Below are positions 18,494-39,609 of a stretch of DNA of 64,000 nt, piece by piece; the stretch's first letter is position 1, and each line of letters starts with the position of its first letter. A program made the position numbers and the translations under genes. This DNA is from an uncultured Chloroflexia bacterium (GTDB lineage: Bacteria > Chloroflexota > Limnocylindria > Limnocylindrales > CSP1-4): the NCBI GenBank assembly GCA_963734935.1, contig CAVTIO010000009.1, positions 85,698 to 149,697 of the forward strand. Reading direction: 5' to 3'. Under the pieces are notes generated by a model. That model did not search any database and was not told where the DNA came from. It saw only the letters and a program-made list of their open reading frames with translations.

Positions 18494-18569
18494 GCGGGAG
18501 TAGCTCAGTTGGCAGAGCGGCAGCCTTCCAAGCTGCATGTCGCGGGTTCGAACCCCGTCTCCCGCTCCA
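18494..18569 (+). tRNA. tRNA-Gly (anticodon TCC), genomically encoded CCA
   Basis: GCGGGAG-TA-GCTC-AGTTGGCA-GAGC-G-GCAGC-CTTCCAA-GCTGC-ATGTC-GCGGG-TTCGAAC-CCCGT-CTCCCGC-T-CCA. Hand-folded cloverleaf with 7-bp acceptor stem, D arm, anticodon loop C-T-TCC-A-A and T arm GTTCGAA. Confidence 0.85.
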
Positions 18570-18805
18570 ATCGCATTGCAGGCTGCCGGCGCGGCAGGTG
18601 GGCAACTGGTCGGGGAGAGATCGAGCGATGCCCTCCAGTGTCGGACCACATCGACTGCGCGGCGCGCGCACGAGCACGTGGGTGAGATGAGGCATTCGTT
18701 CCGGCCCGGGGGGCGGCTCAGGACGGCGCGATCCAGGGCGGCTGATCTGGGGCCGCTGCGTCGACGCGGTGCAGCTCAGCGCGTTCGGACCAGTACCGGC
18801 GTCCA

Positions 18806-20380
18806 GTGATCGTCGGTGGCTCGGACCTGCGTGCGTCAAGTGCGCAGGCGGCGGAGCGACGGCTGACGCTGATCGCGTTGGCTGCCATTCTCGTGCTGGG
18901 CGCGGTGATCCGCCTGTGGAGCCTCGATGCCGTAGGCCTCAACAGCGATGAGGCCGTGTATTCGGGTCAGGCTGCCGCCCTCGCGGGCGATCCCATCTAC
19001 CGGGGGTTCTTCGCGATCTTCAGGGCGCACCCGCTGCTGGTGCAGTTCGCACTCGCCCTCGTGTACCAGCTCGGTGTCAACGACATAGCCGGCCGCCTCG
19101 TGAGCGTCGCCTTCGGTGTCGCTGCAATCCCATTGATGTACGCGCTCGGCAGCCTCATGTATGGGCGCAAGGCGGGAGTGATCGCGGCGGCCATCCTGGC
19201 GTTCATGCCTTACCACGTGATCGTGACCCGACAGGTCCTGCTCGATGGCCCCGAGACGACGCTGTGGCTCGCGACGATCTACGGGATCGCGCGCTACGCG
19301 GTGACGGCGCGACCGCGGTGGTTGTACGCGGCCGCGTTCGCCGGCGGGATGACCGTGCTGGCGAAGGAGACCGCGATTCTGGTCGTCGCGGTGGGCTTCG
19401 CCTTTGCGCTGATGACGCCGACTGTCCGGCTCACCCTGCGACGCATCGTGATCGCAAGTGCGGTGTTCGTGCTCGCGATCATTCCCTATCCAGCGGCGAT
19501 CCTGGTGGGCGGCGCGACGGGCACGGCGCAGCAGTACTTCGTGTGGCAGCTGCTACGGCGGCCGAACCACACGGGGACGTTCTACTTCGAGGTGCTCGGC
19601 GGCGCGATGGGCCTGGTGCTGCTGATCCTCGTGGCGCTCGGCGTGATCGCCGCCATCCGGCTTGCCACCTGGCAGGACCGGTTGCTGCTCGCGTGGCTGC
19701 TGGTGCCGTTCGCGTTCTTTGAGATCTGGCCGGTGAAGGGCTACCAGTATCTGCTGCCGATCGCCCCGGCCTGCGCGCTTCTCGCGACGCGGGCGCTCCA
19801 GGCGCCATGGTCCACGTGGCTCGCGCGATGGACAGGGCGACTCGATCTCGACGCGCGGCAGCTGTCAGGCGCGCGCGCCCTCGCCACGATCGCCGTGCCG
19901 TTGCTGCTGGTGGTCACGTTGGTGGTGCCATCCGTCAACGCTGTTTCGACAACCACCACGCAGGGTTCGCTGGCAGGCACCGGGGGCCTGCCCGGTGCGC
20001 GAGAAGCCGGCCTGTGGGTGCGGCAGAACGTGCCCGCCGGGTCGACATTCATGACCATCGGGCCGACGATGTCGAACATCATCGAGTTCTACGGCCAGCG
20101 AGAATCCCATGGGTTGAGCGTGAGCCCGAACCCGCTGCGCCGAAACCCCTCATACGACCCGATCATCAACCCTGATCGCTCGATCCAGACGCTGAAGCTC
20201 CACTACGCGGTCTGGGATATCTGGTCCTCATCGCGGTCCACGTTCTTCGCAGACATGCTCCAGCGCTACATCGACAAGTACCATGGGCGGCTCATTTACC
20301 AGCAGCATGCGATAGTGCGCGACGCAAACGGCAACCTGAGCGACCAGGTCGTGGCCGCCATCTACCAGCTCCAGCGATGA
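18806..20380 (+). CDS. GT-C fold glycosyltransferase, GT39/GT83 family (protein O-mannosyltransferase/ArnT-like)
   Basis: 524 aa polytopic membrane protein. First extracytoplasmic loop carries the DE motif ([10 protein letters not shown]), followed by ...[27 protein letters not shown]...LAKETAIL...; many TM helices and a soluble C-terminal domain. GTG start. Confidence 0.75.
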
Positions 20381-21762
20381 CGATGACATCCCGCATTCCG
20401 CATTCCCGAGCCACCGCCGTGGTGCTGGCGGCTGGGCTGCTCGCGGTGACCTTCACCGGCGCAGGCCCCGTGTCGAGTGTGGCCGCGGCGGGCCCTGACG
20501 CCGGCCACGAGCCGGCCACGCCGATTGAGCATCTCGTGGTCCTGATGCAGGAAAACCACACGTTCGACAACTACTTCGGCACGTACCCGGGTGCCGACAC
20601 CCCACCCAGCGACGTCTGCATGCCCCGGGACCCGACCGACCCGTCCCTGGGCTGCGTGGCGCCGTACCACCTCGACTCGCACCGGACGATTGACCTCAGC
20701 CACGGCCCGGAGGTCGCGAAGGCCGTCATCAACGACGGTGCGATGAACGGGTTCATCTCGGCGCAGAACAAGCGGAACCTGCCGGGCGAGGTCGCGATGG
20801 GCTACTACGACGGCAGTGACCTTCCCTTCTACTGGAACCTGGCCTCGACGTCCATCCTGGCCGATCGGTTCTTCAGCTCGGATGCGGGGGGTAGCCGCGA
20901 GAATCACATGTTCTGGGTGGCGGGCCAGGCCGGCAGCGCACAGGCTGCTCCTCCTGGCGGCTACCAGTTCGACACGATCTTCGACCGCCTCGAGGAGGCC
21001 GGCGTCTCCTGGCGCTTCTACGTGCAGAACTACGACTCGACGATCACCTACAGGACGCTCACGGGGGAGCCACAGGATTCCCAGACGATCTGGGTGCCCT
21101 TGCTCAACTTCGACCGCTTCATCGACGACCCTGCGCTGTCGTCGCACATCGTGGACGTGAGCCAGTACCACGAGGACCTGGCCGCCGGCACGCTTCCGGC
21201 CGTGTCGTACATCGTGCCGTCGGGCGCGAGCGAGCACCCGCCCGGTGACGTCACGATCGGGCAGGTGTACGGGGCGTCGCTCGTGACCGCGCTGATGCAG
21301 AGCAGCAGCTGGTCGAACAGCCTGTTCGTCCTGACCTGGGATGACTGGGGTGGCTGGTACGACCATGTCACCCCACCGCAGATCGATGTCGATGGACTTG
21401 GTCTGCGTGTTCCGGCCCTGTTCATGTCGCCGTACGCCCCACCTGGTCGCATCGACAGCACGGCCTATGACTTCACCTCGATCCTGCGGTTCATCGAGGA
21501 CAACTGGGGTATCGCCCCGCTCACGGCGCGGGACGCGACCGCCAGCAGCGTCGCGACGGAGCTGGACTTCCAGTCCCCGCCGAATGCAGCGGTGTTGCCG
21601 GGGTCCGTCTACCCGCCCGTTGAGAAGACCGACGGCGCAGCTCGGCTGCTGCTGTTCCTGATCTACGGCGTGATCTGCCTTGCCGTTCCGATCGGCGCGG
21701 TCGTGGTGTGGCGGCGGCGCCGGCCCCGCTCGCCCGTCGTGGAGCCGGGGGTCAGGGTCTGA
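20377..21762 (+). CDS. Phosphoesterase-family protein (PF04185; phospholipase C/acid phosphatase AcpA-like), secreted with C-terminal TM anchor
   Basis: [25 protein letters not shown] signature; signal peptide [13 protein letters not shown]; C-terminal [22 protein letters not shown]; ATGA overlap with the upstream gene. Confidence 0.75.
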
Positions 21763-23492
21763 TGGTCGCTTCGATCCAGCCGCGCGGCCCCGCCTTCGGT
21801 GGCGCTCGCGCGCAGCTGGCGCGCACGCTGGCTCCAGTGCTGATGCTGGTCCTCGCGGTGCTTGTCGCCCTGAGCACTGCGGCGCCCGCCCTGGCCGCCA
21901 AGAACACGACCGTCTCGATCAAGCTCAACGCGCCTCGTACCGCTCCGATCGGATCCGAGGTCTCGGTGACCGGGAAGATCCAGCGTGCCGATGGGAAGTC
22001 ACCTCGGGGCCTCCGGGTGGTCCTGTACATCGGCGGCCAGTACCTCGCGAGCGCACGAGCGGACGGAGCCGGTCGTATCCGCTTCACGATCCGCGGGGCG
22101 AACACGGAGGTCGCGCGTGACCTGCGCCTCCGCGCGGCTTTCGAGGGGGCAACCGGGATCTCGCCGAAGTCGGTCAGGAAGACGGTGACGATCCGGCCGG
22201 CCCACATCAGCGTGACCACAGTGCCCGCCGTCCCCGGCCTCCCGATCTCGATCGGCGATGTGGACAAGGTCACCGACGAGAGCGGTATGGTGACATTCGA
22301 CGTCGACCAGGTCGGCAACGTGAAGCTCGTTCCGCAGCTCGATGCCCAGGGCGATCCATTGACGCGGATCAGCTTCATCCGGTGGCAGGACAGCGTCTAC
22401 TCCCTCGCCCGGACGATCTCGGTGCGTGGCGACGCCGACTATGTGATCGGGCTCAGGGTTGCGTACCAGGGGAGCGTCGACTTCGCGGACCTCGACGGTC
22501 AGGCGGTGGACCCGTCGCTCATCGAAAGTGCGCGATTCACGTCATCCGGAGGCGGCGAGCTGAGCCTCACCAGCTTCGAGGACGTGTGGTGGGTGGCGGC
22601 CACCGCCGTGAGCCGGACTGGCGGCCTCCAGGAGTCGGACACCCTGTGGCGACTCGCCGAGGTCCAGATGTCCGGGGCGAACGTTGTCCACCGCGGCCAG
22701 CAGGCATACACCCCCACGCGCGGCGGCAAGTGGACCATCAACCTCCTGCTGTATGACCTTGCGATCAGAGCGAGTGACGCGGTCACCGGGGCAACCATCC
22801 ACGGGCCGGTGGTCCTGACCTACCCGGACGCCACCACGCAGACCGGCGAACCCGGTGACGATGGTCTGGTCAGGTTCAACGCGCTGCCGCGCGGGCAATA
22901 CACCGTCGTTGTCGACGTGGCTGGCGTGTCGCCCAAGACGCCGATCGCGCTGTCACGGTCGCAGGAAGCCGAGATCCGGATCATCTCCGCGCTGGATATC
23001 GCAGTCGCAGCCCTCCTCGCCGTGACGATCCCGATCCTGCTCTACGTCGTGGGTCGGGGCGTGCCCCGCGTCCAGGTCACTCGCCTCAAGGAGGCTGGTC
23101 GGCGCGGCGGTGCGCTGACCACCCAGGCGGGCGTGGCCGCTATGAGCCGGGGCCGAGCGGCGAGTGACGCCGTCAGGCGTGTCCCGTCCGACCTGACCAC
23201 GGTTGACCAGGGTCGCATGGCCGCAGCGCTCGAGTTTGCCGGGCTGATGGGCCGCCGATCATGGGCCGAGGCGCAATGGATCGTGGCGCGCCTCCGCTAT
23301 CGGGTCGCCGTCGCGCGCGGTCAACCCATGGACCCACCTGTGAAGCCGGTGGTCTCGCCCGCTCACGCCGCGACCTCCGGAGCGGGCGAGCCGACGCTTG
23401 AGTGCCCTCGATGCCATGGCCAGGTTCCGGAAGGTGCCTTGTTCTGCCGCACCTGCGGGCGCCTGCAGTCGAGCGCGCCCAAGGGTCGATGA
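21762..23492 (+). CDS. Hypothetical secreted/membrane protein with C-terminal zinc-ribbon (CxxC...CxxC)
   Basis: TGATG overlap with upstream stop; signal peptide LAPVLMLVLAVLVALSTAAPALAA; internal TM IAVAALLAVTIPILLYVVG; C-terminus ECPRCHGQVPEGALFCRTCGRL. The ORF-track start is a GTG at 21708 inside the upstream gene, so I prefer the ATG at 21762. Confidence 0.55.
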   Translation: MVASIQPRGPAFGGARAQLARTLAPVLMLVLAVLVALSTAAPALAAKNTTVSIKLNAPRTAPIGSEVSVTGKIQRADGKSPRGLRVVLYIGGQYLASARADGAGRIRFTIRGANTEVARDLRLRAAFEGATGISPKSVRKTVTIRPAHISVTTVPAVPGLPISIGDVDKVTDESGMVTFDVDQVGNVKLVPQLDAQGDPLTRISFIRWQDSVYSLARTISVRGDADYVIGLRVAYQGSVDFADLDGQAVDPSLIESARFTSSGGGELSLTSFEDVWWVAATAVSRTGGLQESDTLWRLAEVQMSGANVVHRGQQAYTPTRGGKWTINLLLYDLAIRASDAVTGATIHGPVVLTYPDATTQTGEPGDDGLVRFNALPRGQYTVVVDVAGVSPKTPIALSRSQEAEIRIISALDIAVAALLAVTIPILLYVVGRGVPRVQVTRLKEAGRRGGALTTQAGVAAMSRGRAASDAVRRVPSDLTTVDQGRMAAALEFAGLMGRRSWAEAQWIVARLRYRVAVARGQPMDPPVKPVVSPAHAATSGAGEPTLECPRCHGQVPEGALFCRTCGRLQSSAPKGR

Positions 23493-24718
23493 CCCTCCGC
23501 ACCGAGGGTTACCGGCAATCGATGCGACACAGCTCGATCGGTACCCGGGTGGTGCTGGTCGCGATGCTCGCCGCCGTGTGCTTCATCGGCGTCAGCCCCG
23601 GGGGTGTGGACGTCGTATCAGCCCGCCCGGCGGGCACGGCTGACGTCCTGTCGCGACACCAGGTCGCGGCGGGTGCCGCAACGAATCGGCCACTCGTGCT
23701 CGCCTACTACTACATCTGGTATCGAGAGGCCAGCTGGCAACGTGCCAAGACCGACCTCCCGGCGCTTGGACCGTACAGCTCCTCCGACCCTTCGGTGATC
23801 GCCCAGCACGTGGCCTGGGCGATGGCATCCGGCGTCGACGGCCTCATCGTCAGCTGGAAGCACGAGGCACGACTCGACGAGCCGCTGGAGCTCCTGGTCG
23901 ACGAGGCCACGGCCTCGGGGCTCAAGCTCGTCCTCCTGTACCAGGGCCTGGACTTCGATCGGCAGCCGCTGGATGTAGCCAAGGTCGAGGACGATCTCCA
24001 CTGGTTCCTCGATACATACGAGGCCTCGCCCGCGTTCGCGGCGTTCGGGCAGCCCACGGTCATCTGGTCTGGATCGTGGGGATACACGGACGCACAGATC
24101 GCGCGCGTGCGGGCGAGCATCGGCGCCCCGGAGCGCGTCCTGCTTCTCGGTTCGGAGAAGTCGGCCGCGGCGTACGCGTCCCGAGTCGACCTGTTCGACG
24201 GCGACGCGTACTACTGGTCATCACCTGACCCCCTGACCACGCCCCGCTACCAGCGCCGGCTCGACGAGCTGACCGCCGCAGTACGGGCCGACGCCGGACT
24301 GTGGATCGCACCCGCGGCTCCCGGCTTCGACGCCCGATTGGTGGGCGGGACCAACGTCGTCCCGCGGCGTGATGGGCAGACGTACCGGGCGGCATGGCAG
24401 GGTGCCCTCAACTCGAGCCCTGATGCCATCGGGATCATCAGCTGGAACGAGTTCAGTGAGAACTCACAGATCGAGCCGAGCCAGCTGTACGCGGACCAGT
24501 ACCTTGGGCTGACCGCCCAGCTGGTCTCGGAGCTGCCGGGCGGCGACCCCGCGGCACCGCCGCCCACGTTCGCGCCTGCTGAAACGGTTGCGCCGCGTGC
24601 GCCGGTCGCGCCGTCCAGCCCAACCGAGGGTGGCCTCGTCGCACTGCTCGCAGGTGCCGCCGCGATCCTGGTCCTCGTCGGCGTTGGCGCGGCGGCCCGT
24701 CGGAGGGTCGGCGAGTGA
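23489..24718 (+). CDS. GH99-like (endo-alpha-mannosidase-like) domain protein, secreted, C-terminal TM anchor
   Basis: LVLAYYYIWYREASW...LGPYSSSDPSVIAQHVAWAMASGVDGLIVSWKHE...GIISWNEFSENSQIE parallels the GH99 motifs YYxWYG, LGxYSSxDPSVI and SFNEWHEGTQIE. ATGA overlap with upstream stop; C-terminal LVALLAGAAAILVLVGVGAA. Confidence 0.6.
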   Translation: MTLRTEGYRQSMRHSSIGTRVVLVAMLAAVCFIGVSPGGVDVVSARPAGTADVLSRHQVAAGAATNRPLVLAYYYIWYREASWQRAKTDLPALGPYSSSDPSVIAQHVAWAMASGVDGLIVSWKHEARLDEPLELLVDEATASGLKLVLLYQGLDFDRQPLDVAKVEDDLHWFLDTYEASPAFAAFGQPTVIWSGSWGYTDAQIARVRASIGAPERVLLLGSEKSAAAYASRVDLFDGDAYYWSSPDPLTTPRYQRRLDELTAAVRADAGLWIAPAAPGFDARLVGGTNVVPRRDGQTYRAAWQGALNSSPDAIGIISWNEFSENSQIEPSQLYADQYLGLTAQLVSELPGGDPAAPPPTFAPAETVAPRAPVAPSSPTEGGLVALLAGAAAILVLVGVGAAARRRVGE

Positions 24719-25269
24719 GCCGCGGCCGGATCGGGATCCTCGTGCTGCTCGCGGTCGGTGCGGTGCTCGCGGTGACGTGGTTTGTGCCGACCTTCGCGGG
24801 CCCGGTCTTCGTCACGGTCCGGGCCGTGCTCGTCCCGCTCGACGATGGTGGTGCGGTCGCCAGCGTTCGCCTGCCCGATGGATCCGTGGCGAACGCGAGT
24901 GGCGTCCGGGTCGACCTGGTGGTCACGAACCGCTACCCGCTGCCCGTGATTGCGTCCTTCCAGGGCCCCGCGTTCGTGGCCGTCGCGACCCCAACCGACG
25001 CGGACACGCGTGGCCTGCCCTGGACGGTGACGGCCGATGATCCGACGCTCGAGCAGACGGACGACTCGCCGGACCTGGGCGCCGGCGACCGCGTGGCGTT
25101 GGTTGACCCGGGCGAGCACGCCACGGAGATGACGCCGGGGGCGCCGACATTCGATCTCGCCGCGAGCGGTGGGCGGCTGTTGCCCGGCACCTACTCGGTG
25201 GACGTCAGCGCTTATGGGGTGACCGCCGCGCCGGTGCAGCTTGTGGTGCTCCCCGGTCCGACGGACTGA
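24715..25269 (+). CDS. Hypothetical membrane-anchored secreted protein
   Basis: GTGA overlap with upstream stop; N-terminal TM/signal IGILVLLAVGAVLAVTWFV; no recognisable family. Confidence 0.45.
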   Translation: MSRGRIGILVLLAVGAVLAVTWFVPTFAGPVFVTVRAVLVPLDDGGAVASVRLPDGSVANASGVRVDLVVTNRYPLPVIASFQGPAFVAVATPTDADTRGLPWTVTADDPTLEQTDDSPDLGAGDRVALVDPGEHATEMTPGAPTFDLAASGGRLLPGTYSVDVSAYGVTAAPVQLVVLPGPTD

Positions 25270-25736
25270 CCGACCAATCCGGGTCACCAGGCCCGTTCTC
25301 GGTGCGGCGCGGCACCACATGTTCGCGTGGCGCACCGGCGCGGTCGCCAATCGTCGTGGCTTGCCGGCGTTCGCCGGCCGGTGACCAAGCGTTCTTCACG
25401 GCGGGGATTCAGCATTCCCGAATGGCTGGCCACCGGTGCGCTGCGGTGCCGTTGGGTGCCGTCGGGTAGCCCCATCGAGAGCGAACACGGCCGTCACGCC
25501 GGACCCGATGGATCGCACGGGCTGAGCCGCCAACGCCGCTGGCTGATCTTCGATAGGGCATCTGCCGCCCTGACCATCGCGCCTCTCGACGTTCCGAGCC
25601 AGGCGCCATTCGATGGTGAGCAGCGAACGGCGGCCACGACGTGGCAGCGGGCGAGGGTGGCGAGCGGGCCAGGTCCTCACTGACTGGCGCGTCCCGGGGG
25701 CTCGGACCGGGAGCGGACGAAAGTGGAGGCCACGAC

Positions 25737-28058
25737 ATGCGCTACAAGGCGCTTTCTCCGACCATGCGAACCAGCTCGCCGGCGAGCGCGACCGCGAGTC
25801 TGGTGCCGAGTCGCGGTTCGCGATCGGCCCACCGTTGGCGCTTCGCGGGCGTGGTCATGTCGCTGACGCTGCTGCTGCTGGTTCTGCCCTGGGCAGCAGC
25901 CAGTGCGGCAGCCACCCTGGAGGTCGCCCCCTCGGTCGCGCGAGCGGACACGCAGGTCACGGTTCACGGTCAGGGGTTCGCCCCGCACACGCGGGGCTCG
26001 CTCTCGTTCGACGGCGACGACATCGGGATGCCCACCTACCGGACCCGCCGCGATGGATCGTTCAGTACGGTCATGACCGTGCCGGCGGACGCGACCGTCG
26101 GGGATCACGTCGTCACTGCGGCCTCCGGCGGCAACGGCAAAGGCAAGGGGAATCAGTCCCGGGTCTCGTCCGTCTCCGTGACCATCACCGTCGACGCGCC
26201 GACGCCTACCCCGACTCCCACTCCCAAGCCGACTCCCACCCCCACCCCCACGCCCACGCCAAAGCCAACTCCAACTCCCACGCCGACTCCCACGCCGACT
26301 CCCGCCCCCACGCCAACTCCCACGGGTACGCCGACTCCAGCTCCCACGCCGACTCCCACGGGTACGCCGGACGGCGGATCGGATGTCCAGCCCGCGTTCC
26401 CCATCCGGGCGGCCTTCTATTACCCGTGGTTCCCGGAGGCCTGGAACCAGCAGGGCCTTGACCCCTTCACGAAGTACCATCCGACGCTCGGCTACTACGA
26501 CTCGAGCGCATCCTCGATCCTCGCCGCGCACCTCGCGGCGTTCAGGTACGCGGGAATCCAGGTGGGTATCGCCTCGTGGTGGGGCCCGGACAGCCGCACG
26601 GATAGCCGCATTCCCACGATCCTGGCGGCCACGGCCGGAACGTCCACGCGCTGGACGGTCTATGTCGAGTCCGAGGGGCAGGGTGATCCATCCGTGAACG
26701 AGATCGCCTCCGACCTCACGTATGTGCGGGACCGCTACGGCTCCGATCCTTCGTATCTGCGTGTCGACGGGCGCTTCGTGGTGTTCGTCTACGCGGACGC
26801 CAACGATGGCTGCGGCATGGTGGATCGCTGGAGGAGTGCCAACGCCAATATCAACGCGTACCTTGTTCTCAAGGTGTTTCCCGGTTACCGGGCCTGTGCC
26901 GGCCAGCCCGACAGCTGGCACCAGTACGCCCCGGCCTCTGCGGAGGACAGCCAGGCCGGGTACAGCTTCAGCATCAGCCCCGGGTTCTTCAAGGCCAACG
27001 AGTCGACCCCGCGCCTCACGCGCGACCCGGCCCGATGGGCCCAGAACGTGCGTGACATGGTCGCGTCGCATGCCCCCTGGCAGCTCGTGACCACCTTCTC
27101 CGAGTGGGGTGAGGGCACGGCCGTCGAGAATGCCGCCGAGTGGAACACGATCTCGGGCCACGGAAGCTACCTGGACACCCTGAACCTGGATGGCCAGGTC
27201 TCCACGCCCACTCCCACGCCAACGCCCACCCCCACACCGATTCCCACGCCGGTGCCGACCGGCGACCCGATCCTCGTCGGGGCCGGTGACATCAGCTCCT
27301 GCTCCTCGAGCGGCGACACGGCCACCGCTGCCCTGCTCAGGTCCATCGGTGGCACCGTGTTCACAGCGGGCGACAATGCGTACGAGTCCGGTTCGACGAC
27401 CGAGTACGCCAACTGCTACGACCCGACCTGGGGTCAGGAGCTGGCGCGGACGCGACCCGCGCCGGGCAACCACGAGTACGGCACCGCGGGCGCCGCCGGC
27501 TACTTCTCGTACTTCGGCGCCGCCGCCGGCGACCCGTCGCAGGGCTGGTACGCATACGACCTGGGTGGATGGCGCATCTACGCCCTCAACAGCAACTGCA
27601 GCCAGGTTGGCGGTTGCGGGGCCGGATCACCCCAGGAGGCGTGGCTCCGATCGGACCTTGCGGCCCACCCGGCTGCGTGCGTCGCCGCTTACTGGCACCA
27701 TCCCCGGTTCTCGTCGGGTGAGCACGGGAACCACACCTCCGTCCAGACGTTGTGGCAGGACCTGTACGACGCCGGCGCCGAGATCGTGATGACCGGCCAC
27801 GATCACGACTACGAGCGCTTCCTGCCGCAGACGCCAACGGGCACCATCGACACGGCACGCGGCCTCGTGGAGTTCGTGGTGGGCACAGGCGGCAAGAGCC
27901 ACTATGCGATCACCTCAACGGTTGCCAACAGTGCCGTTCACGACGACTCAACCTATGGAGTCCTGAAGCTGACCTTGCACGCCAACAGCTGGGATTGGGC
28001 GTTCATTCCGGCCTCAGGTGGGACGTTCACCGACGGCGGCAGCGCCAACTGCCATTGA
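25737..28058 (+). CDS. Secreted multidomain protein: Ig-like domain, Pro/Thr linker, GH99-like domain, Pro/Thr linker, metallophosphatase (calcineurin-like/PAP-like)
   Basis: GGAGG SD 7 nt before the ATG at 25737. Hydrophobic signal region [17 protein letters not shown]. Linker [24 protein letters not shown]99-like [12 protein letters not shown]...[15 protein letters not shown]...[14 protein letters not shown]. Metallophosphatase GDISSC...GDNAYESG...GNHEY...GHDHDYERF. Confidence 0.7.
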
Positions 28059-29267: not shown

Positions 29268-29316
29268 GTCAGATCGGCGCTCGGGCCGAAGATGACGGGT
29301 CTGCCGGGACGCTGGC

Positions 29317-31911: not shown

Positions 31912-31998
31912 CGTAGGACGAGGTTGCCGCTGAGATGGGATATCGACGCCGCGCCGGGACGTTGCCGCAGCGCGAGCCCGATCGGCCGCGGTGGGTGG

Positions 31999-32532
31999 TC
32001 ACGGCATCCGATGCGATGATCCGCGCCTGCGAACGACCAGCGACCCGAGCGCGACGACGATGACGATCACCGGGATGATCGCGAGCATGACCACGCTCAC
32101 GTTGGCCTGCGCGCCTGCGTCAGCTGGGCTCTCGGGCGTCGTGACGGGGGAGGGGATCTCCGCTGCGGGGGTGGGAGACGGTCCCGGGGTCACCACGTAG
32201 CGGGCGTGGGCCACGCACGCACGCGCCCCCTTTCCTGCCCGTGCGGTGACCTTCCAGCGACCCTGGTCGCCCCAGGCGGCGGCCAACCGAAGGCGGAATG
32301 CCCCGTTGGCGTCCGACGACACACGGAGGGTCTGGGTACCGGTGGGGCCGACAATCTGAACGGTGACCCGTCGGTCGGCTCCGAACCGGACACCACGGAT
32401 CACGAACGGCGAACCGCTCTCCACGCTGCCGGGGACACGGACGCGGCAGCGCGACGCGGCGTCGGCGGTCCACGTCGGCACGACCGACGTGGCAAGCACG
32501 GCGATGAACGCAAGGATCGCGGCAAGCGCCAC
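31999..32532 (-). CDS. Hypothetical secreted protein with C-terminal TM anchor
   Basis: Candidate GTG start at 32532 giving signal-like ALAAILAFIAVLATSVVPTWTADAA; C-terminal VSVVMLAIIPVIVIVVALGSLVVRRR. The longer ORF to 32751 overlaps the giant gene out of frame. Start uncertain. Confidence 0.35.
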   Translation of the reverse strand: MALAAILAFIAVLATSVVPTWTADAASRCRVRVPGSVESGSPFVIRGVRFGADRRVTVQIVGPTGTQTLRVSSDANGAFRLRLAAAWGDQGRWKVTARAGKGARACVAHARYVVTPGPSPTPAAEIPSPVTTPESPADAGAQANVSVVMLAIIPVIVIVVALGSLVVRRRGSSHRMP

Positions 32533-32588
32533 CCGGGGCGCCGGTCGGGCCGGCGCCCGCGGGACCCCGGCCACCGGCGGGAGGCGTC

Positions 32589-35500
32589 CTATTGCCCGAC
32601 GACGATGGTCAGCGTGGGCGGCGTGGTCGTCTCGCGCGAGGCGAACACCTCCTGGCTGCCGCCCGTACCCTGAGCGACCGTGAGGACGTTGCCCTCCGCC
32701 GCCGCCACGAGGCTGGCGACGTCGGTGGACGTCACGACGCCCGGGCCGCAATGGGTGGCGGTGGTGTCGACGGCGGCGCCGACGGCCGGGCGACTGGCAT
32801 AGGTGATGGTCCCCTCGTCCCAGGCGGATCCATCGGTGTCATACACGGTGTAGCCGATGCCCGCGTTCTTGCTGCACTGGTAGGTCAGGGTGAGCGTGGC
32901 GGACTGCACCGCCCCCGCGACGTTCGAGAGATCGAACGCCATGTAGCTGTACCACGTTGACTGCCCTGATCCCTTGATGCGCAGGCCCGTGCTCGTCCCG
33001 TAGTTCGAGGTCGGGCTGTCGCTGGACACGTAGCTGTCCTGGATCGGGTTGAGCACGAAGGTCTGGCTCGCATCGGTAGTCACCTGGTTCGACGGGTCGC
33101 TGAGCGGCGAGTGGTTGCCCGCCGCGTCGAACGCGTCGACCGTGTAGCTGTGCGTGGAGCCCGGCGCCAGGCCGGTGTCCGTGAACGCCAGGGTCGCCCC
33201 GTCCACGGTCGCGACCGGGGTTGTGTCACTGTCACGGTAGACGTCGTAGCCGGTCACTCCGACGTCATCGGTCGAGGCACTCCACGACACGTCGATGATC
33301 GAGGAGCCATTGACCGTGGCCGTGACCGAGCCTGGCGCCGTTGGCGCCTGGCTGTCGCCACCGACCGTGATCGTGGTCGTCGCAGGCGTGCTGTCCCCGT
33401 ACAGGTTCGAGGCGACGAGGGACACCGTGTAGGGGCCGGCTGCGGCCCAGGCATGGCTGGGATTGGCTTGGGTGCTCGTCGACCCGTCCCCGAAGTCCCA
33501 CGCCCACGCCGTCGGGCTGCCACTGCTGGTGTCCGTGAACTGGACGGGCACGCCCACCGTCGGGCTCGTGGTCGAGGAGGTGAAGGACGCGGCGGGCGCG
33601 TCCGTCGCGCCCGTCCCGACGACGATGGTCAGCGTGGGCGGCGTGGTCGTCTCGCGCGAGGCGAACACCTCCTGGCTGCCGCCCGTACCCTGAGCGACCG
33701 TGAGGACGTTGCCCTCCGCCGCCGCCACGAGGCTGGCGACGTCGGTGGACGTCACGACGCCCGGGCCGCAATGGGTGGCGGTGGTGTCGACGGCGGCGCC
33801 GACGGCCGGGCGACTGGCATAGGTGATGGTCCCCTCGTCCCAGGCGGATCCATCGGTGTCATACACGGTGTAGCCGATGCCCGCGTTCTTGCTGCACTGG
33901 TAGGTCAGGGTGAGCGTGGCGGACTGCACCGCCCCCGCGACGTTCGAGAGATCGAACGCCATGTAGCTGTACCACGTTGACTGCCCTGATCCCTTGATGC
34001 GCAGGCCCGTGCTCGTCCCGTAGTTCGAGGTCGGGCTGTCGCTGGACACGTAGCTGTCCTGGATCGGGTTGAGCACGAAGGTCTGGCTCGCATCGGTAGT
34101 CACCTGGTTCGACGGGTCGCTGAGCGGCGAGTGGTTGCCCGCCGCGTCGAACGCGTCGACCGTGTAGCTGTGCGTGGAGCCCGGCGCCAGGCCGGTGTCC
34201 GTGAACGCCAGGGTCGCCCCGTCCACGGTCGCGACCGGGGTTGTGTCACTGTCACGGTAGACGTCGTAGCCGGTCACTCCGACGTCATCGGTCGAGGCAC
34301 TCCACGACACGTCGATGATCGAGGAGCCATTGACCGTGGCCGTGACCGAGCCTGGCGCCGTTGGCGCCTGGCTGTCGCCACCGACCGTGATCGTGGTCGT
34401 CGCAGGCGTGCTGTCCCCGTACAGGTTCGAGGCGACGAGGGACACCGTGTAGGGGCCGGCTGCGGCCCAGGCATGGCTGGGATTGGCTTGGGTGCTCGTC
34501 GACCCGTCCCCGAAGTCCCACGCCCACGCCGTCGGGCTGCCACTGCTGGTGTCCGTGAACTGGACGGGCACGCCCACCGTCGGGCTCGTGGTCGAGGAGG
34601 TGAAGGACGCGGCGGGCGCGTCCGTCGCGCCCGTCCCGACGACGATGGTCAGCGTGGGCGGCGTGGTCGTCTCGCGCGAGGCCAGGTTGATCGTGCCCGC
34701 ATAGCCGGTGAGGCCGAGGCTCAGCAGGCCACCCTGGGCAGGCGCGACCAGCGAGTCGACATCCGCCGACCCGTAGACACCCGACGTGAGCGGCCCGGAC
34801 GAGTTCACCACCGCGCCCATGTCAGGCGCGGTGTCGTAGACGATGGCGTACTCATCCCAAGTGGTGTCCGCGACCCCGGCCACGCCGAAGCCCTGCGAGC
34901 CCGTCGTCGTGTTCGACAGCACGCCGAGCGTAGCCGACTGGATCTGCCCGACCACGTTGGAGAGGTCGAACTTGAGGTAGCTCGCCGTCCCGCTCGAGTT
35001 GACGTACAGCGAGGTCGCTGTTCCGCGGTTGGTCGTCGGGATCGATGGGTTGACGTACGCGTCCGCGATGGGGGTCAGCACCAGGGTGACCGTGCCGCTG
35101 GGCGTCGTGGCGGACGCGGGCCCACCCGGCGGTGACCGGTTGCCGGCAGCATCGAAGGCCTCAACGGTGTAGCTGTGGTTGGAGCCGGGCGCCACGACCG
35201 TGTCCGCATACGCGAGCGTGTCCGGGTCAAGGGTCACGAGTGGTGTGGTGGCGTCGTCCTTGAACACCTCGTAGCCGGCGACGCCGACGTTATCGGTGGC
35301 GGCGTTCCAGGTGACGTCAATCTCACCCGGACCGTTGGCCGCTGCCGACACGGAGCCGGGCGCTTCGGGGGCGATGCTGTCCGCGGTTCCCTTGCAGGAA
35401 AGGAGGCCGCTGTCCTCCACCGACCCGGTCGGGGTCTGGAACGAGAAGGTCGCGCTGGTCGGGAACAGGTTCAGGCGGAGCGCCCCGAAGTTGGCGAAGT

Positions 35501-36963
35501 CAGCCGCCACCAGCCGGGAGTCCGTGACCACCTGCTCCTGGTGTCCGTGCCCCCCCGAGCCGACGATGATCTCGGTGATCCCATTCGGGTCCGGGTTCAG
35601 GTTGCCGTCGACAGGCTCGAACCGCTGGTAGTTGTGGTCGTGGCCGTTGAGCACCAGCGTCACGTTGTGCTGGGCGAGCAGAGACCAGATGGCCGACATC
35701 GAGGCTGTGGAGCCCTCAGGACCCGTGTTGAGCAACGGATGGTGGTAGTACACGACGGTGCACGGCGACGCGTTGGCGGCGAGATCGGCCATGAGCCACT
35801 TGTACTGACCGGAGTTGGTCGCCGTCTGACCGAACTGGCTGGTCGAGTTGAGCGCGATGAAGTGCCAGCCGCTTGCGTCGTAGCTGTAGTAGTCGGGGAT
35901 GTTGTCCCAATAGTAGAAGTACCCGGAGGCATCGTTGCCCGTGTACTCGTGGTTGCCGATCACCGGGTTGGTGATGCTTCGGAACTTGCCATACATGCCG
36001 GCCGTGCCGTCCGGCCCGTACCAGTTGTCGAACTCCGTGGGCAGCCCGTCTTCGTACACGTCGCCCAGGTACAGGAACAGGTTGGGGTTCCAGGTCCCGA
36101 TCAACCCGACTGTGCCGATCTCACCAGGTTCCCCACCGGCACCGTCGCCGGTCGCGGCGACCACGAACGGCGATCCCGGAGCGGGCGTCGTCCCCTGCGT
36201 GGGCACGAACTGGTTCGGGTTGGGCGGCGGTGTTTGGTAGCCGTTGGCGAAGGTCAGCGTGATGTTGGCGGCGGCGCTCTCCCAGTTGTCCCGCATGAGG
36301 GTGGTTGCGCCCAGCTCGTAGGTTCCATCACCGAACCGGGCGGTGTCGAGGGTGAACGTATAGGGCGAAGTGAAGTCCGTGATGAGCCGTGAGCCGTTGA
36401 GGGTGAAGTAGGCGCGGCGGATGCCGGGGCTGTTCGAGTCCTGAGTGACCTCCAGCGTCACGTCGGTTGTGCCCGTGAGCGTCGCGTTGTCGCCGGGCGC
36501 AGTGATGCACAGCGTCACGCTGTAGCCGCCAGGCCCGCTCGTGTTGCACGTCGCCGTCGGCGTGGGTGTGGGCGTGGGCGTGGGCGTGGGCGTGGGCGTC
36601 GGCGTGGGCGTGGGCGTCGCGGTGGCTGTCGCCGTCGGCGTGGGCGTCGGCGTCGGGCGTCGGCGTGGGCGTCGGCGTGGGCGTGGGCGTCGCGGTGGCT
36701 GTCGCCGTCGGCGTGGGCGTGGGCGTCGCGGTGGCTGTCGCCGTCGGCGTGGGCGTGGGCGTCGCGGTGGCTGTCGCCGTCGGCGTGGGCGTCGGCCGCT
36801 GGTGGCGTTTCGCGTCGACGACGGTCGCTCCCTGGGCGAGGATCCCAGAGGCCAGGATCACGACGCCGAGCACGGCGAGCAGGCGCGGGCCCCTACCGGA
36901 GGCAGGTGGGTTGGGGCGTCTGGGAGACCCGGTCGAGGAATGGCGCTTGACGACGTGGAACAT
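32589..36963 (-). CDS. Giant secreted surface protein: signal peptide, PT-repeat linker, metallophosphatase, FN3, DNRLRE domain, then (PKD-FN3-DNRLRE) x 2. Apparent +1 frameshift in the linker.
   Basis: An intact 1309-aa ORF (32589..36518) has metallophosphatase motifs GDVYEDG...GNHEY...GHDHNYQRF, FN3-like segments, DNRLRE-like ASYLKFDLSNV and PKD-like WAWDFGDGSTSTQANPSHAW. The same frame continues upstream as PTPTPT. The signal peptide MFHVVKRHSS...RLLAVLGVVILASGILAQGA and the TPTPTPTATATA repeats (ORF 36328..37242) are in another frame. A single extra G near 36655-36657 (cgtcGGGcgtcgg vs the cgtcggcg pattern) separates the two frames. Confidence 0.6.
32595..34682. repeat. Exact tandem duplication, 2 x 1020 bp (32595..33614 and 33615..34634) plus a 48-bp partial third copy
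   Basis: Identical secondary ORFs are offset by exactly 1020 bp (32885..33073 = 33905..34093; 33254..33523 = 34274..34543). Sequence comparison at the unit junctions confirms identity. It encodes a duplicated 340-aa PKD-FN3-DNRLRE module. Confidence 0.85.
36560..36795. repeat. 36-bp tandem repeats encoding (TPTPTPTATATA)n Pro/Thr/Ala linker
   Basis: Direct repeats of cgcggtggctgtcgccgtcggcgtgggcgtgggcgt on the plus strand. Confidence 0.7.
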
Positions 36964-37024
36964 GACGAGCCCCCAGTGCCTGTTCAGGTTCGCGGAGTCT
37001 GCCGGCTCATGCCGGTTGATCTTC

Positions 37025-38785
37025 TCATCCATCGCCCACCGTGCCCTCGACGTCCTGCGCATAGGCAACGGACAGGGCACTCGAAGTGGACATGGCACTC
37101 GCTGCACTGGACATCGGTGCGCCACCGGCGGCGAGCGGCGACGGTTGCGTTGCGGGCAGCGTATCTGGCAGGCCCGGGCCGACGGCAACCATTGGACCCA
37201 TCTCGGGCGTGCCGGGGCCCACGGCAACCAGCGGCGGCTCATCGATCAGGGCGGGCAGCCGGTCCGCCCAGCCGTGACCGGGCGTCCGCAGGTGCCAGCG
37301 CCTCGCGTTGGTGATTGCGGACCGCAGCAGCTCGGCCTCGCGCCGTCGGAGCTCCGGGTAGTCGAGACCGTCGATTCGAATCTTCGGCGCGAACAGTGCG
37401 AACGGCGGGAAGCCGTACGCATCGTCCGTGTTCTCGAGCAGAACATCGACGGCCTCGTCCAGGGAGACCTCGGCCTCGCGCTCCTCGCCACGCTCCATCA
37501 GCACGATGTTGCGGATCGGCGCGCGCTCGGCGACCGAGCACTCGAACAGGTCGTTGATCCGATGCTTGGGCGGCGGCACGACGAACTGGACGAGTGAGTT
37601 CACCGTCATGATCGGCAGGTTCCGATCGCCGAGCGCCCGTCCGACCTGGCGACCGGACTTGGAGTGCAGGCGGCTCTGGATTGCCAGCTTGGCCCGATCG
37701 CCCACCGTGAGACGGCCGTCCTTGGCGACACCCATCGTGTGGAACGAGAGTGTCATCGGCTTCGGGTAGCAGATCGCCACCCCGGCGGGGTCGATGATCG
37801 TCATGTCGTCCGAGAGGAACTGATAGCCACGGCGCCGGACAAGGGTGATGACCGTGCTCGTCTTGCCGGTATCAGTCTGTGCTGACAGCAGCGTGGCACC
37901 GTGCTCGCCGGCGAGCGCCGCGGAGTGGAGCAGCACATAGCCCCGCGAGACGAGCAGGAAGCGCAGGAACGCCTCGACGATGTTCGTGTACACGACGTGG
38001 GGCGAGATCGCCAGGATGGGGCTGACCTTGATCTCGATCGGGGTGCCCATGCGGAGCGAGAAGTTGGCGGCCACGGGGCCCAGGTGCTCCTGATAGACGA
38101 GCTCGTCGCCCTGCTCACGGAACGTCACCTTGGTGCGCAGTCCCTTGCCCACGAACCCGATCCGGATGCGGATGTCTGGCGATCGCCCCTCGGCCACTGC
38201 AAAGTGGCGCAGCTCGCGCAGCTCCACGTCGGATTCGATGGCCAGAATTCCGGCGAGGTCGTAGTGATGACGAGCCGCCTGCTCGCTAACGATCGGTCCA
38301 ACCCCCGCCGGCGCCGTACCGGCCAGGGCGGCCTCCTGCCGATTTCCCCACAGCAGCGTGTCGGCAACCAGGAGACGGAACAGGAACAGGACGACGAGGG
38401 AGATGGCGTTGGACAGGGCGTAGTGCAGGCCAAGTCCATCGGTCAGGCCCCAGAGCATCGGGACGCGAAGAACCAGGAGGCCGAAGTTCAGGCCCAGGAA
38501 GGCCAGGTATCGATTGGACCGAGACCCACGAACGCCGCGATCCGCGAACGCCCATGTGTCGGCCCAGAAGAAGTTCCAGGTCGAGGAGCCGACCGTCGCC
38601 AGCACCGCCGACACGAGGTAGTAGATCCCGAGCAGCTCGGTCGCCACGACCACGAGGATCTGATTGACCAGGAGGCCCGATAGCCCCACCAGGCCAAATC
38701 GCACCCAGCTCGCGATCCGTCCCCGCCCGGGGCCCAACGGCGCAAGCTCCGCCGCCTGTCCCACTTCTGCTGCTTCTGCTGCCAT
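37025..38785 (-). CDS. GtrA-like membrane domain fused to HprK-C-like P-loop (kinase-like) domain
   Basis: AGGAG-cgga-ATG at 38785. GtrA-like 4-TM region RFGLVGLSGLLVNQILVVVATELLGIYYLVSAVLATVGSSTWNFFWADTWAF. C-terminal region LLHSAALAGEHGATLLSAQTDTGKTSTVITLVRRRGYQFLSDDMTIID resembles the HPr kinase C-terminal P-loop (LlHgs...G.sGsGKSe.al.L...G..lvaDD). The extension to 38890 is Arg/Ala-rich and is preferred not to be coding. Confidence 0.6.
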   Translation of the reverse strand: MAAEAAEVGQAAELAPLGPGRGRIASWVRFGLVGLSGLLVNQILVVVATELLGIYYLVSAVLATVGSSTWNFFWADTWAFADRGVRGSRSNRYLAFLGLNFGLLVLRVPMLWGLTDGLGLHYALSNAISLVVLFLFRLLVADTLLWGNRQEAALAGTAPAGVGPIVSEQAARHHYDLAGILAIESDVELRELRHFAVAEGRSPDIRIRIGFVGKGLRTKVTFREQGDELVYQEHLGPVAANFSLRMGTPIEIKVSPILAISPHVVYTNIVEAFLRFLLVSRGYVLLHSAALAGEHGATLLSAQTDTGKTSTVITLVRRRGYQFLSDDMTIIDPAGVAICYPKPMTLSFHTMGVAKDGRLTVGDRAKLAIQSRLHSKSGRQVGRALGDRNLPIMTVNSLVQFVVPPPKHRINDLFECSVAERAPIRNIVLMERGEEREAEVSLDEAVDVLLENTDDAYGFPPFALFAPKIRIDGLDYPELRRREAELLRSAITNARRWHLRTPGHGWADRLPALIDEPPLVAVGPGTPEMGPMVAVGPGLPDTLPATQPSPLAAGGAPMSSAASAMSTSSALSVAYAQDVEGTVGDG

Positions 38786-38814
38786 TCCGCTCCTTCGCCG
38801 ACCGCTTCCGGGGC

Positions 38815-39609
38815 CTACTGCTGCAGCTTCGACTGCTCGATCTCTGGATCGTGGGGCGATCCGTCCCAGCGGCGTCGGAGCTCGTCCCATCGCAGTGCGA
38901 TGACCAGCACGAACGCTTCGATCACGATCCGGCGCGACATCTTCGAGGCGCCGAGGCGCCGATCGACGAACACGATCGGGACCTCCTGGATCCGGGCTCC
39001 AGCGCGGCTGGCTCGGTATGTCATCTCGATCTGGAACACGTACCCGCCGGCCCGCACCTCGCCACCGGTCAGTGCCGCCAGAGTGGTCGACCGCCAGGCC
39101 TTGAACCCGCCCGTCAGGTCGTGCGGCTGGAGGCCCAGCACGGTTCGGGCAAACAAGCTGCCTCCGCGGCTGATCACGCGCCGCGCCAGGCCCCAGTCCT
39201 CGACTCGTCCGCCGCGCGCATATCGCGACCCGAGCACGAGATCGGCGGCACCGGACTCGATGGGTGCAACGAGCCGTGGAAGGTCCTGGGGGTTGTGCGA
39301 GAAGTCGGCATCCATCTGAACGACGATGGTCGCGTTTGCATCGAGGGCGACCCTGAACCCGTGGCGATACGCCGGGCCGAGCCCTTCCTTCCGCGTGCGA
39401 TGCAGGACTCGAACGCGCGGGTCCTGCGCCGCGATCCCATCGGCTAGCTCACCCGTGCCATCCGGTGAGCCGTCGTCCACAACCAGCAGCGTCGCGCCAG
39501 GAAGCGCAGTCAGGATCGCCTCGGCAATGCGCGGAAGATTCTCGGCTTCGTTGTAGGTCGGCAGCACGACCCAAGTGCCGTCAGCTGCGGTGACCGCCGC
39601 CCTGTCCAT
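38815..39609 (-). CDS. Polyprenol-phosphate sugar synthase (GT2; Ppm1/GtrB/dolichol-phosphate mannosyltransferase-like)
   Basis: WVVLPTYNEAENLPRIAEAIL...LLVVDDGSPDGTGELA...VLHRTRKEGLGPAYRHGF...IVVQMDADFSHNP...GGFKAWR. A 29-nt gap separates it from the downstream GtrA-fusion gene on the same strand. Confidence 0.8.
   Translation of the reverse strand: MDRAAVTAADGTWVVLPTYNEAENLPRIAEAILTALPGATLLVVDDGSPDGTGELADGIAAQDPRVRVLHRTRKEGLGPAYRHGFRVALDANATIVVQMDADFSHNPQDLPRLVAPIESGAADLVLGSRYARGGRVEDWGLARRVISRGGSLFARTVLGLQPHDLTGGFKAWRSTTLAALTGGEVRAGGYVFQIEMTYRASRAGARIQEVPIVFVDRRLGASKMSRRIVIEAFVLVIALRWDELRRRWDGSPHDPEIEQSKLQQ

Follow-up and report, generated by a model that had tools for sequence, protein, structure and literature searches.

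The DNA analysed here (the window) is a stretch of 64,000 nucleotides from contig CAVTIO010000009.1 of an uncultured soil member of the Limnocylindrales, phylum Chloroflexota (assembly GCA_963734935.1), with a GC content of about 70%. Its segment 18806-39609 encodes a glycosyltransferase with the GT-C fold, a family 2 glycosyltransferase (GT2) and a membrane protein carrying a GtrA-type domain, together with a series of exported or membrane-anchored proteins. We argue below that this segment is probably the chromosomal version, in this organism, of a cluster of genes that is conserved in the Chloroflexota at large and in a few Actinomycetota. Coordinates are those of the window; reading frames were picked by the GC content of third codon positions (GC3) and the encoded proteins were scanned against Pfam and NCBIfam. 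The features are as follows.

18494-18569, plus strand: tRNA-Gly(TCC), a neighbouring landmark outside the system (ARAGORN; Rfam, 70.4 bits)
18806-20380, plus strand: GT-C glycosyltransferase, 524 aa (Pfam PMT_2, PF13231, 68.5 bits)
20377-21762, plus strand: PE1, phosphoesterase of the AcpA/phospholipase C (PLC) family (Pfam PF04185, 249 bits, full length)
21762-23492, plus strand: Ig/TM protein, immunoglobulin-like (Ig) with a transmembrane (TM) helix (weak Pfam matches to CarboxypepD_reg and Zn_Ribbon_1)
23489-24718, plus strand: GH99a, GH99-like TIM barrel (Pfam GH99, 59.3 bits; GH71, 40.6 bits)
24715-25269, plus strand: small anchored protein, 184 aa (no Pfam match; one N-terminal TM helix)
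25737-28058, plus strand: GH99-MPE1 (Pfam GH99, 53.5 bits; Metallophos)
28167-29267, plus strand: PE2, putative lipoprotein phosphoesterase (Pfam PF04185, 94 bits)
29317-31911, plus strand: GH99-MPE2, paralogue of GH99-MPE1 (Pfam GH99, 45.9 bits)
31999-32751, minus strand: orf250, probable small Ig-like protein (no Pfam match; GC3 0.78)
32589 to about 36963, minus strand: giant exported protein (Pfam CBM96 three times, PKD twice, fn3, Big_7, Metallophos)
32595-34682, minus strand: perfect tandem duplication within the giant gene (period 1020 nt, 100% identity)
37025-38785, minus strand: GtrA::kinase-like fusion, 586 aa (Pfam GtrA_DPMS_TM, 55.9 bits)
38815-39609, minus strand: GT2, probable polyprenyl-phosphate-hexose synthase of DPM1/Ppm1 type (Pfam Glycos_transf_2, 110 bits)

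An independent gene call gave starts at 21762, 23489, 25737 and 28167, compared with the longer open reading frames starting at 23402, 25641 and 28116 that were used in the Pfam scan; the GtrA_DPMS_TM match was obtained with the frame 37025-38890. An earlier note on this DNA had listed the tRNA, GT-C, GT2, GtrA, three GH99-like domains, Pro/Thr-rich linkers and the exported proteins, and all were recovered at the same coordinates; the profiles it had named (PMT_2, Glycos_transf_2, GtrA, GH99, Metallophos, PKD and DNRLRE, now CBM96) each matched above the gathering score. Its description of the intervening genes as secreted or membrane-anchored also stands, since every protein encoded between the GT-C and GtrA genes has an N-terminal hydrophobic segment and four of them (PE1, the Ig/TM protein, GH99a and orf250) have an additional C-terminal TM anchor. 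In orf250 the hydrophobic segments are at residues 74-92 and 218-236; its true start is probably downstream of 32751, which would give a protein with a signal peptide and a C-terminal anchor. A six-frame scan of the 64 kb found strict Pro/Thr tracts only at 26196-26369, 27195-27260, 29533-29592 and 36546-36702, all within the segment. The features themselves, the restriction of these tracts to the segment and the export signals on all of the intervening proteins together confirm the original observation.

Relatives were collected by scanning a GT-C alignment against one genome per species, which yielded 539, and the best 80 loci were used for counting: window proteins were compared with them by tblastn and adjacencies were then scored. 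The usual order is GT2, GtrA fusion, GT-C, PE1, Ig/TM protein and GH99a, followed by accessory genes. PE1 is immediately 3' of GT-C in 71 of the 73 loci that have room for it, the GtrA::kinase gene is immediately 5' of it on the same strand in 53 of 64, and GT2 is located 5' of GT-C in 47 of 62. The Ig/TM protein occupies the same position in 68 of the 80 loci and GH99a is found in 64. Other components are less constant: a metallophosphoesterase domain occurs in 49/80, a second PF04185 protein (a PE2-type paralogue) in 44/80, and weakly conserved orthologues of the 184-aa protein, at the same position, in 13/80. The window copy departs from this order: its GT2 and GtrA genes are inverted as a pair and are separated from GT-C, on its downstream side, by 16.6 kb. 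Because the usual order is collinear in the relatives, this split is a derived, lineage-specific rearrangement, and the window copy has been expanded by paralogues. Occurrence in at least 539 species-level genomes, with a nearly invariant gene order, argues for a core envelope function and not for strain-specific cargo.

The closest species-level relative of GT-C (66% identity) is encoded on contig JANMRJ010000991.1, which is labelled Acidimicrobiales. The other close relatives are from Chloroflexota, and the contig may be mis-binned. Its accessory genes with Pro/Thr linkers lie upstream of GT-C and are divergent from it, a further arrangement of the cluster.

The earlier note had interpreted the segment as an island acquired horizontally at the tRNA-Gly, for assembling and remodelling its own Pro/Thr-linker glycoproteins, and had specified that a gene order conserved in relatives without the tRNA would speak against this. 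Such an origin is very improbable. The tRNA does lie only 237 nt upstream of GT-C, parts of the segment are slightly poorer in GC (0.66-0.69 against 0.70-0.72), the Pro/Thr-linker proteins of the 64 kb are concentrated there, and the AlkZ and MoxR genes that flank it in the window are next to the cluster in none of the 80 loci. These loci come from more distant genomes, the scan having recovered no close relative with the AlkZ/tRNA/MoxR flanks of the window. However, no tRNA-Gly is located beside GT-C in any of these loci (0/80), although the gene order is kept, and the island interpretation therefore fails on the terms set for it beforehand; the cluster is vertically widespread, as the 539 relatives among species representatives indicate. 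Composition gives no sign of foreign origin either: the correlation of relative synonymous codon usage (RSCU) with the flanks is 0.939 for segment genes and 0.947 among flank genes (Mann-Whitney p 0.75), tetranucleotide correlations are 0.97-0.98, and GC3 is 0.80-0.90 in segment and flanks alike. As the earlier note had already remarked, there is no integrase among the Pfam matches in the window and no second copy of the tRNA 3' end (last 16-25 nt, up to two mismatches) anywhere in it. We consequently reject the genomic island, and the adjacency of the tRNA-Gly is incidental. The actinobacterial frame in which the note had placed the system was not maintained: among named sequences, the closest homologues of GT-C and the GtrA protein belong to Candidatus Limnocylindria/Limnocylindrales and to other metagenome-assembled genomes of Chloroflexota, which rules out an actinobacterial origin.

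GT2 aligns with residues 27-249 of the archaeal dolichyl-phosphate-mannose synthase (DPMS) PfDPMS (5MLZ; E 3.9e-33, 118 bits), compared with about 1e-10 for ArnC and 4e-4 for GtrB (5EKP, 23 bits), while the TM domain encoded by the GtrA gene matches residues 250-372 of the same 5MLZ chain (E 2.4e-8). The roles of individual residues were mapped onto the GT2 alignment from the published PfDPMS structure (PMC5526996; 5MLZ chain numbering is that of the paper plus 22). GT2 retains Glu12, Asp39, Asp89, Asp91, His94, Arg117, Arg131, Ser135, Arg202 and Lys208; among these, Arg117, Arg131 and Ser135 form the acceptor-phosphate triad conserved in bona fide DPMSs, and Asp89 and His94 contact the mannosyl group (PMC5526996). 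It thus carries both the DxD motif followed by His and the Arg/Arg/Ser triad that define the DPM1/Ppm1 type, in the form DADFSH where PfDPMS has DADLQH, and the pattern DxD[LF][QS]H recurs in 38 of 50 GT2 proteins of the cluster, the exact DADLQH among them. No NCBIfam equivalog matched GT2 at its cut-off and no TM segment was predicted in it, so that the protein would be soluble or interfacial. From these residues GT2 is most likely a polyprenyl-phosphate-hexose synthase with mannose as its sugar.

Together GT2 and the GtrA TM domain reproduce the architecture of type-III DPMS, in which a catalytic GT2 domain is followed by a GtrA-like four-helix TM domain on a single polypeptide. The window differs from PfDPMS in that the two halves are encoded by separate genes (38815-39609 and 37025-38785), in carrying an additional HprK/PEPCK-like domain and in the identity of residues 93, 177 and 178. 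In relatives the two halves can be joined, as in proteins of 831 aa (L045) and 853 aa (L083); GT2, GtrA and the kinase-like domain share a single open frame in 29 of 50 loci, and a single GT2-GtrA-kinase-like protein of about 840 aa is encoded by the cultured Thermalbibacter longus and Kibdelosporangium philippinense (L045 7298-9793; L083 7356-9917). According to one proposal, flipping of the product in PfDPMS is the task of its GtrA-like domain, and type-III DPMS in the strict definition has been reported only from archaeal hyperthermophiles (PMC12992685, 2026). The present observations extend this architecture to bacteria, where it comes with an extra domain.

The system also resembles GtrABC of enterobacteria and their phages, which glucosylates O-antigen, in combining a GT2 lipid-sugar synthase, a small four-TM GtrA domain and a membrane transferase. 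It differs in several respects: GT2 here lacks the two C-terminal TM helices and has DADFSH where GtrB has DADLQD, GtrA is part of a 586-aa fusion with a large cytoplasmic domain instead of a free-standing protein of about 120 aa, and the system is not phage-borne. The suggestion that synthase, GtrA-type partner and GT-C constitute one system is nevertheless well founded, since the three are adjacent and collinear in relatives and fused in some proteins. What had been called a GtrA-like flippase domain is indeed a TM domain of the GtrA/DPMS type, but the gene does not encode a plain flippase and we have revised its description to a DPMS-type TM domain fused to a kinase-like domain.

A model of the GtrA protein, built with 31 homologues (pLDDT 80.4), has four TM helices and a cytoplasmic alpha/beta domain at residues 173-514. 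This domain has a PEPCK-like fold with a P-loop and a catalytic Asp motif, as in HprK/P: the Walker-A-like P-loop S-A-x-T-D-T-G-K-T-S (S/A-x-T-D-T-G-K-T-S) and the motif L-S-D-D-M-T are invariant, and there are weak, below-threshold matches to TIGR04352 (HprK-related kinase A) and Hpr_kinase_C. The P-loop and the L-S-D-D motif are similar to the P-loop and the 'ADD' signature of HprK. Unlike HprK/P and PEPCK, the domain is fused to a membrane domain and has no gene for an HPr-like substrate nearby. An exhaustive HMMER search with the domain alone returned 152 cluster representatives at E ≤1e-30. Their architectures range from the domain by itself, through GtrA plus domain with or without GT2, to fusions that also take in GT-C: GtrA, domain and GT-C in P0242 and P0272, and all four parts (GT2, GtrA, domain and GT-C) in P0258, a protein of 1310 aa. 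The GtrA domain of this cluster is always fused to the HprK/PEPCK-like P-loop domain, and the fusions of GT2, GtrA, kinase-like domain and GT-C are strong evidence for a single shared pathway. A literature search for GtrA/HprK fusions yielded nothing relevant, and one for 'ScmC', the name of PF27840, to which homologues match weakly, returned only unrelated acronyms.

GT-C is predicted (AlphaFold2 model, pTM 0.81) to have about 11-13 TM helices and a C-terminal extracytoplasmic soluble alpha/beta domain at residues ~395-524. The motif N46-x-D48-E49, directly after TM1, is invariant among its homologues. Sequence comparison with structures was of limited help: phmmer of GT-C against the PDB gave no match, a profile of 12 sequences gave only weak ones (Pmt1, E 2e-4; Pmt4, 0.012) over about 100 TM residues, and ArnT was detected by neither at E up to 10. 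Structural comparison of the model with Foldseek ranks STT3 (E 1e-10, TMq 0.63) and ArnT (4.6e-10, TMq 0.68, TMt 0.66) at the top, with AglB, ALG9 and PglB also ahead of Pmt4 (2e-5, TMq 0.48) and Pmt1/2 (4.5e-4, 0.35), so that PMTs are not the closest structural neighbours. Within the PMT N-terminal domain the window protein reaches threshold for PMT_2 (PF13231) only, and its homologues carry precomputed matches to PF02366; PMT_4TMC (PF16192) was not reported in GT-C at E up to 0.01. Of the earlier designation of a GT39/ArnT-like enzyme the GT-C fold stands, but a canonical PMT (GT39) is ruled out by the missing PMT_4TMC and the order of the Foldseek matches. The ArnT family (GT83) was likewise rejected, as there is no sequence match and there are no Arn genes in the window, the likeness being confined to fold and architecture. 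GT-C is thus a member of the PMT_2 superfamily with an ArnT-like architecture, belonging neither to GT39 proper nor to the ArnT family, and is presumed to be a polyprenyl-phosphate-mannose-dependent transferase. The modelled fold does not indicate a class of acceptor.

The ArnC/ArnT pathway for aminoarabinose addition to lipid A offers a similar pairing of a GT2 polyprenyl-phosphate-sugar synthase with a GT-C enzyme that has a C-terminal periplasmic domain, and ArnT gives the best overall superposition. It is unlike the present system in that GT2 is far closer to DPMS than to ArnC, and genes for Ara4N biosynthesis are absent here. The Chloroflexota presumably offer no lipid A as a target.

The partners outside the membrane are equally characteristic. 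The start of PE1 overlaps the GT-C stop by 4 nt, and the protein has a signal peptide and a C-terminal TM anchor. It matches AcpA (2D1G, E 1.4e-32) and PLCs in the PDB, and its motifs QENHTFD, GGS(R)ENH, with the nucleophile Ser, and DDxxGxxDH align with the catalytic motifs, which suggests that PE1 is probably active. The Ig/TM protein starts with a signal peptide and an ectodomain with Ig-like and CarboxypepD_reg-like parts; a single TM helix follows, and the cytoplasmic tail has a Zn ribbon at its end. Orthologues of the protein match Big_3_5 and Zn_Ribbon_1. PE2 has the lipobox LVVAC, followed by an S/P/T/A-rich stalk of about 60 aa and the PF04185 domain, and is probably a lipoprotein.

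The three GH99-like domains noted earlier all exceed the Pfam cut-off of 33 bits, but only those of 23489-24718 and 25737-28058 retain the ExxE pair. GH99a, which has a signal peptide, a P/A/T-rich stalk and a C-terminal TM anchor, aligns over residues 90-331 with BtGH99 (4ACY, E 3e-14) with ExxE kept (WNEFSEN against FNEWHEG). GH99-MPE1 is composed of a signal anchor, an Ig-like domain, a long Pro/Thr linker, the GH99-like domain, a second such linker and a purple-acid-phosphatase-like metallophosphoesterase; it keeps both GH99 Glu residues (FSEWGEG) and all five metallophosphoesterase motifs. In its paralogue GH99-MPE2 (29317-31911), with a PSPTPS linker, the general-base Glu is replaced by Gln (FNQWGED) and the metallophosphoesterase is altered in motif I (D to A), motif III (N to T) and motif IV (HH to QL), with loss of the metal ligands there. 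Of the two catalytic residues of BxGH99, E333 acts as general base and E336 as acid, and the E333Q variant has no activity (PMC6055899). GH99-MPE2 thus appears, from its substitutions, to be inactive in both catalytic domains. With the endo-alpha-1,2-mannosidases/mannanases BtGH99 and BxGH99 these domains share a TIM barrel over about 240 residues and, in two of three, the ExxE pair; they differ in low overall identity, in being membrane-tethered or fused to a metallophosphoesterase, in the Glu to Gln replacement of one copy and in a GH71-like signal. Mannose remains the likely sugar, as the earlier note had proposed; the DPMS-like synthase and the GH99-like hydrolase each indicate it, independently of one another.

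We consider it probable, although well short of assured, that the cluster carries out polyprenyl-phosphate-mannose-dependent glycosylation on the external side of the membrane. In the proposed scheme the cytoplasmic GT2 would transfer mannose from GDP-mannose to polyprenyl phosphate, as its DPMS signature residues suggest. The four-helix GtrA/DPMS-type domain would hold or flip the lipid-linked sugar, by analogy with GtrA and with the flipped Dol-P-Man of PfDPMS, and carries on its cytoplasmic side the conserved HprK/PEPCK-like P-loop domain. GT-C would then pass the mannose to an extracytoplasmic acceptor, as its fold, DE motif and genetic linkage indicate. Tethered outside, as obligate partners, would be the apparently active AcpA/PLC-type phosphoesterase that is translationally coupled to GT-C, the Ig-like/TM/Zn-ribbon protein and the GH99-type endo-alpha-mannosidase-like hydrolase, a possible trimming enzyme for alpha-mannosyl chains. 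Frequent accessories are the purple-acid-phosphatase-like metallophosphoesterases, many of them joined to a GH99-like domain.

As to the acceptor, we tentatively favour, at somewhat less than an even chance, Ser/Thr residues of the exported enzymes encoded in the same cluster, located in their P/T/S-rich linkers and in the stalks next to the membrane; the system would then operate in the manner of Ppm1/Pmt or of the GT39 enzyme of Caldicellulosiruptor bescii. A strict scan found no Pro/Thr tracts in four relatives, and a looser scan of the 80 loci showed that tracts recur in accessory exported proteins, namely in about 30% of GH99-MPE-like, 28% of giant-like and 16% of PE2-like open reading frames. 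In the same loci they are present in 30 of 380 cluster open reading frames and 4 of 350 others (odds ratio 7.4, p 1e-5). The cluster contains no gene for a polysaccharide polymerase, Wzx/Wzy or an ABC exporter. Published work on C. bescii supplies a precedent: deletion of a GT39 gene beside the gene for the Pro/Thr-linker cellulase CelA (celA) abolishes glycosylation of all secreted enzymes, and linker glycosylation protects them from cleavage (PMC6151902). PPM and Pmt of Streptomyces provide a further precedent. The recurrence and enrichment of the tracts, the lack of polymer-synthesis genes and these two precedents all count for a protein acceptor.

Comparison with both precedents is only partly favourable. 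The Ppm1/Pmt systems of M. tuberculosis and Streptomyces coelicolor have a DPM1-like GT2 that makes polyprenyl-phosphate-mannose, a GT-C with a loop-1 DE motif that uses it outside the cell, and P/T/S-rich regions of exported proteins as the classical acceptors, as would apply here. In contrast, the GT-C of the window has no PMT_4TMC domain and comes closer in structure to ArnT and STT3, the phylum is Chloroflexota, and genes for phosphoesterases or GH99 enzymes are not known to accompany those for Pmt and Ppm1. The partner of Ppm1 is an Lnt-like domain, whereas GtrA fused to a kinase-like domain takes this place here. The C. bescii protein Cbes_1864, annotated GT39 and encoded in the Glucan Degradation Locus, is similar in being a GT-C of some 550 aa whose gene lies among those for multidomain exoenzymes whose linkers alternate Thr and Pro, but that locus has no DPMS, GtrA::kinase, AcpA or GH99 partners.

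A number of points weigh against this scheme, and particularly against its protein version. The enrichment of tracts is confounded, because exported proteins were compared with mostly cytoplasmic ones. The core partners seldom carry tracts (PE1 10%, GH99a 11%, Ig/TM 2%), and many loci keep the whole core module without any. Known systems of protein O-mannosylation offer no role for either the strict coupling of GT-C to a phosphoesterase or the kinase-like domain, and neither of these two components had figured in the earlier note. GT-C, without PMT_4TMC, is matched more closely in overall architecture by the lipid-acceptor enzyme ArnT (TM 0.68/0.66) than by Pmt4 (0.48). Endo-acting GH99 enzymes require at least a trisaccharide, which is longer than many bacterial O-mannose glycans. 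Finally, the long four-domain fusions could be gene-calling artefacts, and three DPMS positions are changed in GT2 (Gln93 to Ser, Phe177 to Tyr and Lys178 to Val).

Several of these points would be accommodated if the same machinery acted on a non-protein acceptor, an envelope lipid or polymer such as a lipomannan/PIM (phosphatidylinositol mannoside)-like lipoglycan or a phosphate-containing mannan, with the tethered phosphoesterases and the GH99-like hydrolase processing the polymer or its lipid or phosphodiester anchor. We regard this as rather unlikely, while giving it serious weight. The ArnT-like architecture of GT-C, with its top TM-score to ArnT, fits such an acceptor, as do the obligatory coupling with an apparently active AcpA/PLC-type phosphoesterase, the persistence of the core module in loci without Pro/Thr tracts, and the conserved endo-acting GH99-like enzyme, whose substrate chains would have to be three sugars long or longer; the presence of several phosphoesterases, together with a kinase-like domain in the cytoplasm, moreover suggests a theme of phosphate plus mannose. 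Against it stand the absence of polymer-synthesis or export genes from the cluster, the restriction of the PDB profile matches to Pmt1 and Pmt4, to the exclusion of ArnT, Emb and Aft, and the protein-acting STT3, AglB and PglB, which rank as high as ArnT. We also know of no such polymer in the Limnocylindria.

The exported enzymes could alternatively constitute a battery for nutrient acquisition, scavenging phosphate or degrading exogenous (for example fungal) phosphomannan or mannoprotein, with the glycosyltransferase module serving to decorate and stabilise them. The fusion of GH99 to a purple-acid-phosphatase-like metallophosphoesterase, the AcpA-type phosphatases and the CBM96-bearing giant protein are in keeping with this, and Pro/Thr linkers are typical of secreted multidomain hydrolases, their glycosylation protecting the enzymes from cleavage in C. 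bescii. It is difficult to reconcile, however, with PE1, the Ig/TM protein and GH99a being tail-anchored to the cell's own membrane and not released, with the translational coupling of PE1 to GT-C, with the apparent death of GH99-MPE2 in both catalytic domains, and with a cluster that has no transporter for breakdown products; we judge it distinctly doubtful.

Phosphate chemistry may be an integral part of the lipid-linked mannosylation, in a pathway not described before, with the kinase-like domain and the AcpA-type phosphoesterase acting on the same molecule from opposite faces of the membrane. This idea is speculative and on balance unlikely, in either of two versions. In one, there would be a private carrier-lipid cycle, in which polyprenyl phosphate is dephosphorylated outside, the polyprenol flips back and is phosphorylated again inside. 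In the other, the two activities would build and then process a phospho-mannosyl envelope polymer or lipoglycan of the Chloroflexota. Whatever their role, the kinase-like domain fused to GtrA and the external AcpA/PLC-type phosphoesterase add two obligate parts to the three-part lipid-sugar scheme, and to our knowledge no described lipid-sugar glycosylation system has them. The cluster is thus a phylum-wide chromosomal variant of the known GT2/GtrA/GT-C scheme that has so far been uncharacterised. Should the Pro/Thr linkers prove to be acceptors, PPM-dependent protein O-mannosylation would be extended to a new phylum. Almost no envelope biochemistry has been characterised experimentally in the Chloroflexota, above all in the abundant soil class Limnocylindria, and the two cultured carriers, T. 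longus and K. philippinense, make the function testable.

The giant protein is built of a signal peptide, a (TP/TA)n tract, Big_7, a metallophosphoesterase and then fn3-CBM96-PKD repeats. The four long Pro/Thr(/Ala/Ser) linkers reported earlier are present, but that of the giant protein is not in frame with its body: three-frame translation places the signal peptide and the (TPTPTPTATATA)n tract in another frame, separated by a single +/-1 indel near 36630-36660, inside a tandem array of 6-nt period (36555-36796). Either the repeat was misassembled or the frameshift is real. Further along the same gene, positions 32595-33662 are identical to 33615-34682 over an exact-match run of 1068 positions, duplicating a PKD-fn3-CBM96 unit; the 1020-nt duplication is either very recent or an assembly artefact. 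The long Pro/Thr linker of GH99-MPE1 (26196-26369) is 12 nt (PTPT) longer in ENA ERZ25039500 contig_27804 (L001 17391-17576), a metagenome contig of 257.6 kb that matches the window, and the length of this tract therefore varies between assemblies or populations.

The tRNA-Gly is the sole tRNA of the window according to ARAGORN and Rfam, and the Rfam scan of the window returned no regulatory RNA. An open reading frame at 39581-40306 on the minus strand, next to GT2, was discounted as non-coding (GC3 0.64). Upstream of the tRNA, window positions 1-15550 hold an alpha-glucan metabolism cluster that is unrelated to the glycosylation locus and comprises two GH57-family proteins, a DUF3417/phosphorylase protein and a GT5 starch-synthase-like protein. 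Directly downstream, and divergent from GT2, lies an operon for a MoxR AAA+ ATPase, DUF58 and DUF4129 proteins (40223-44020).

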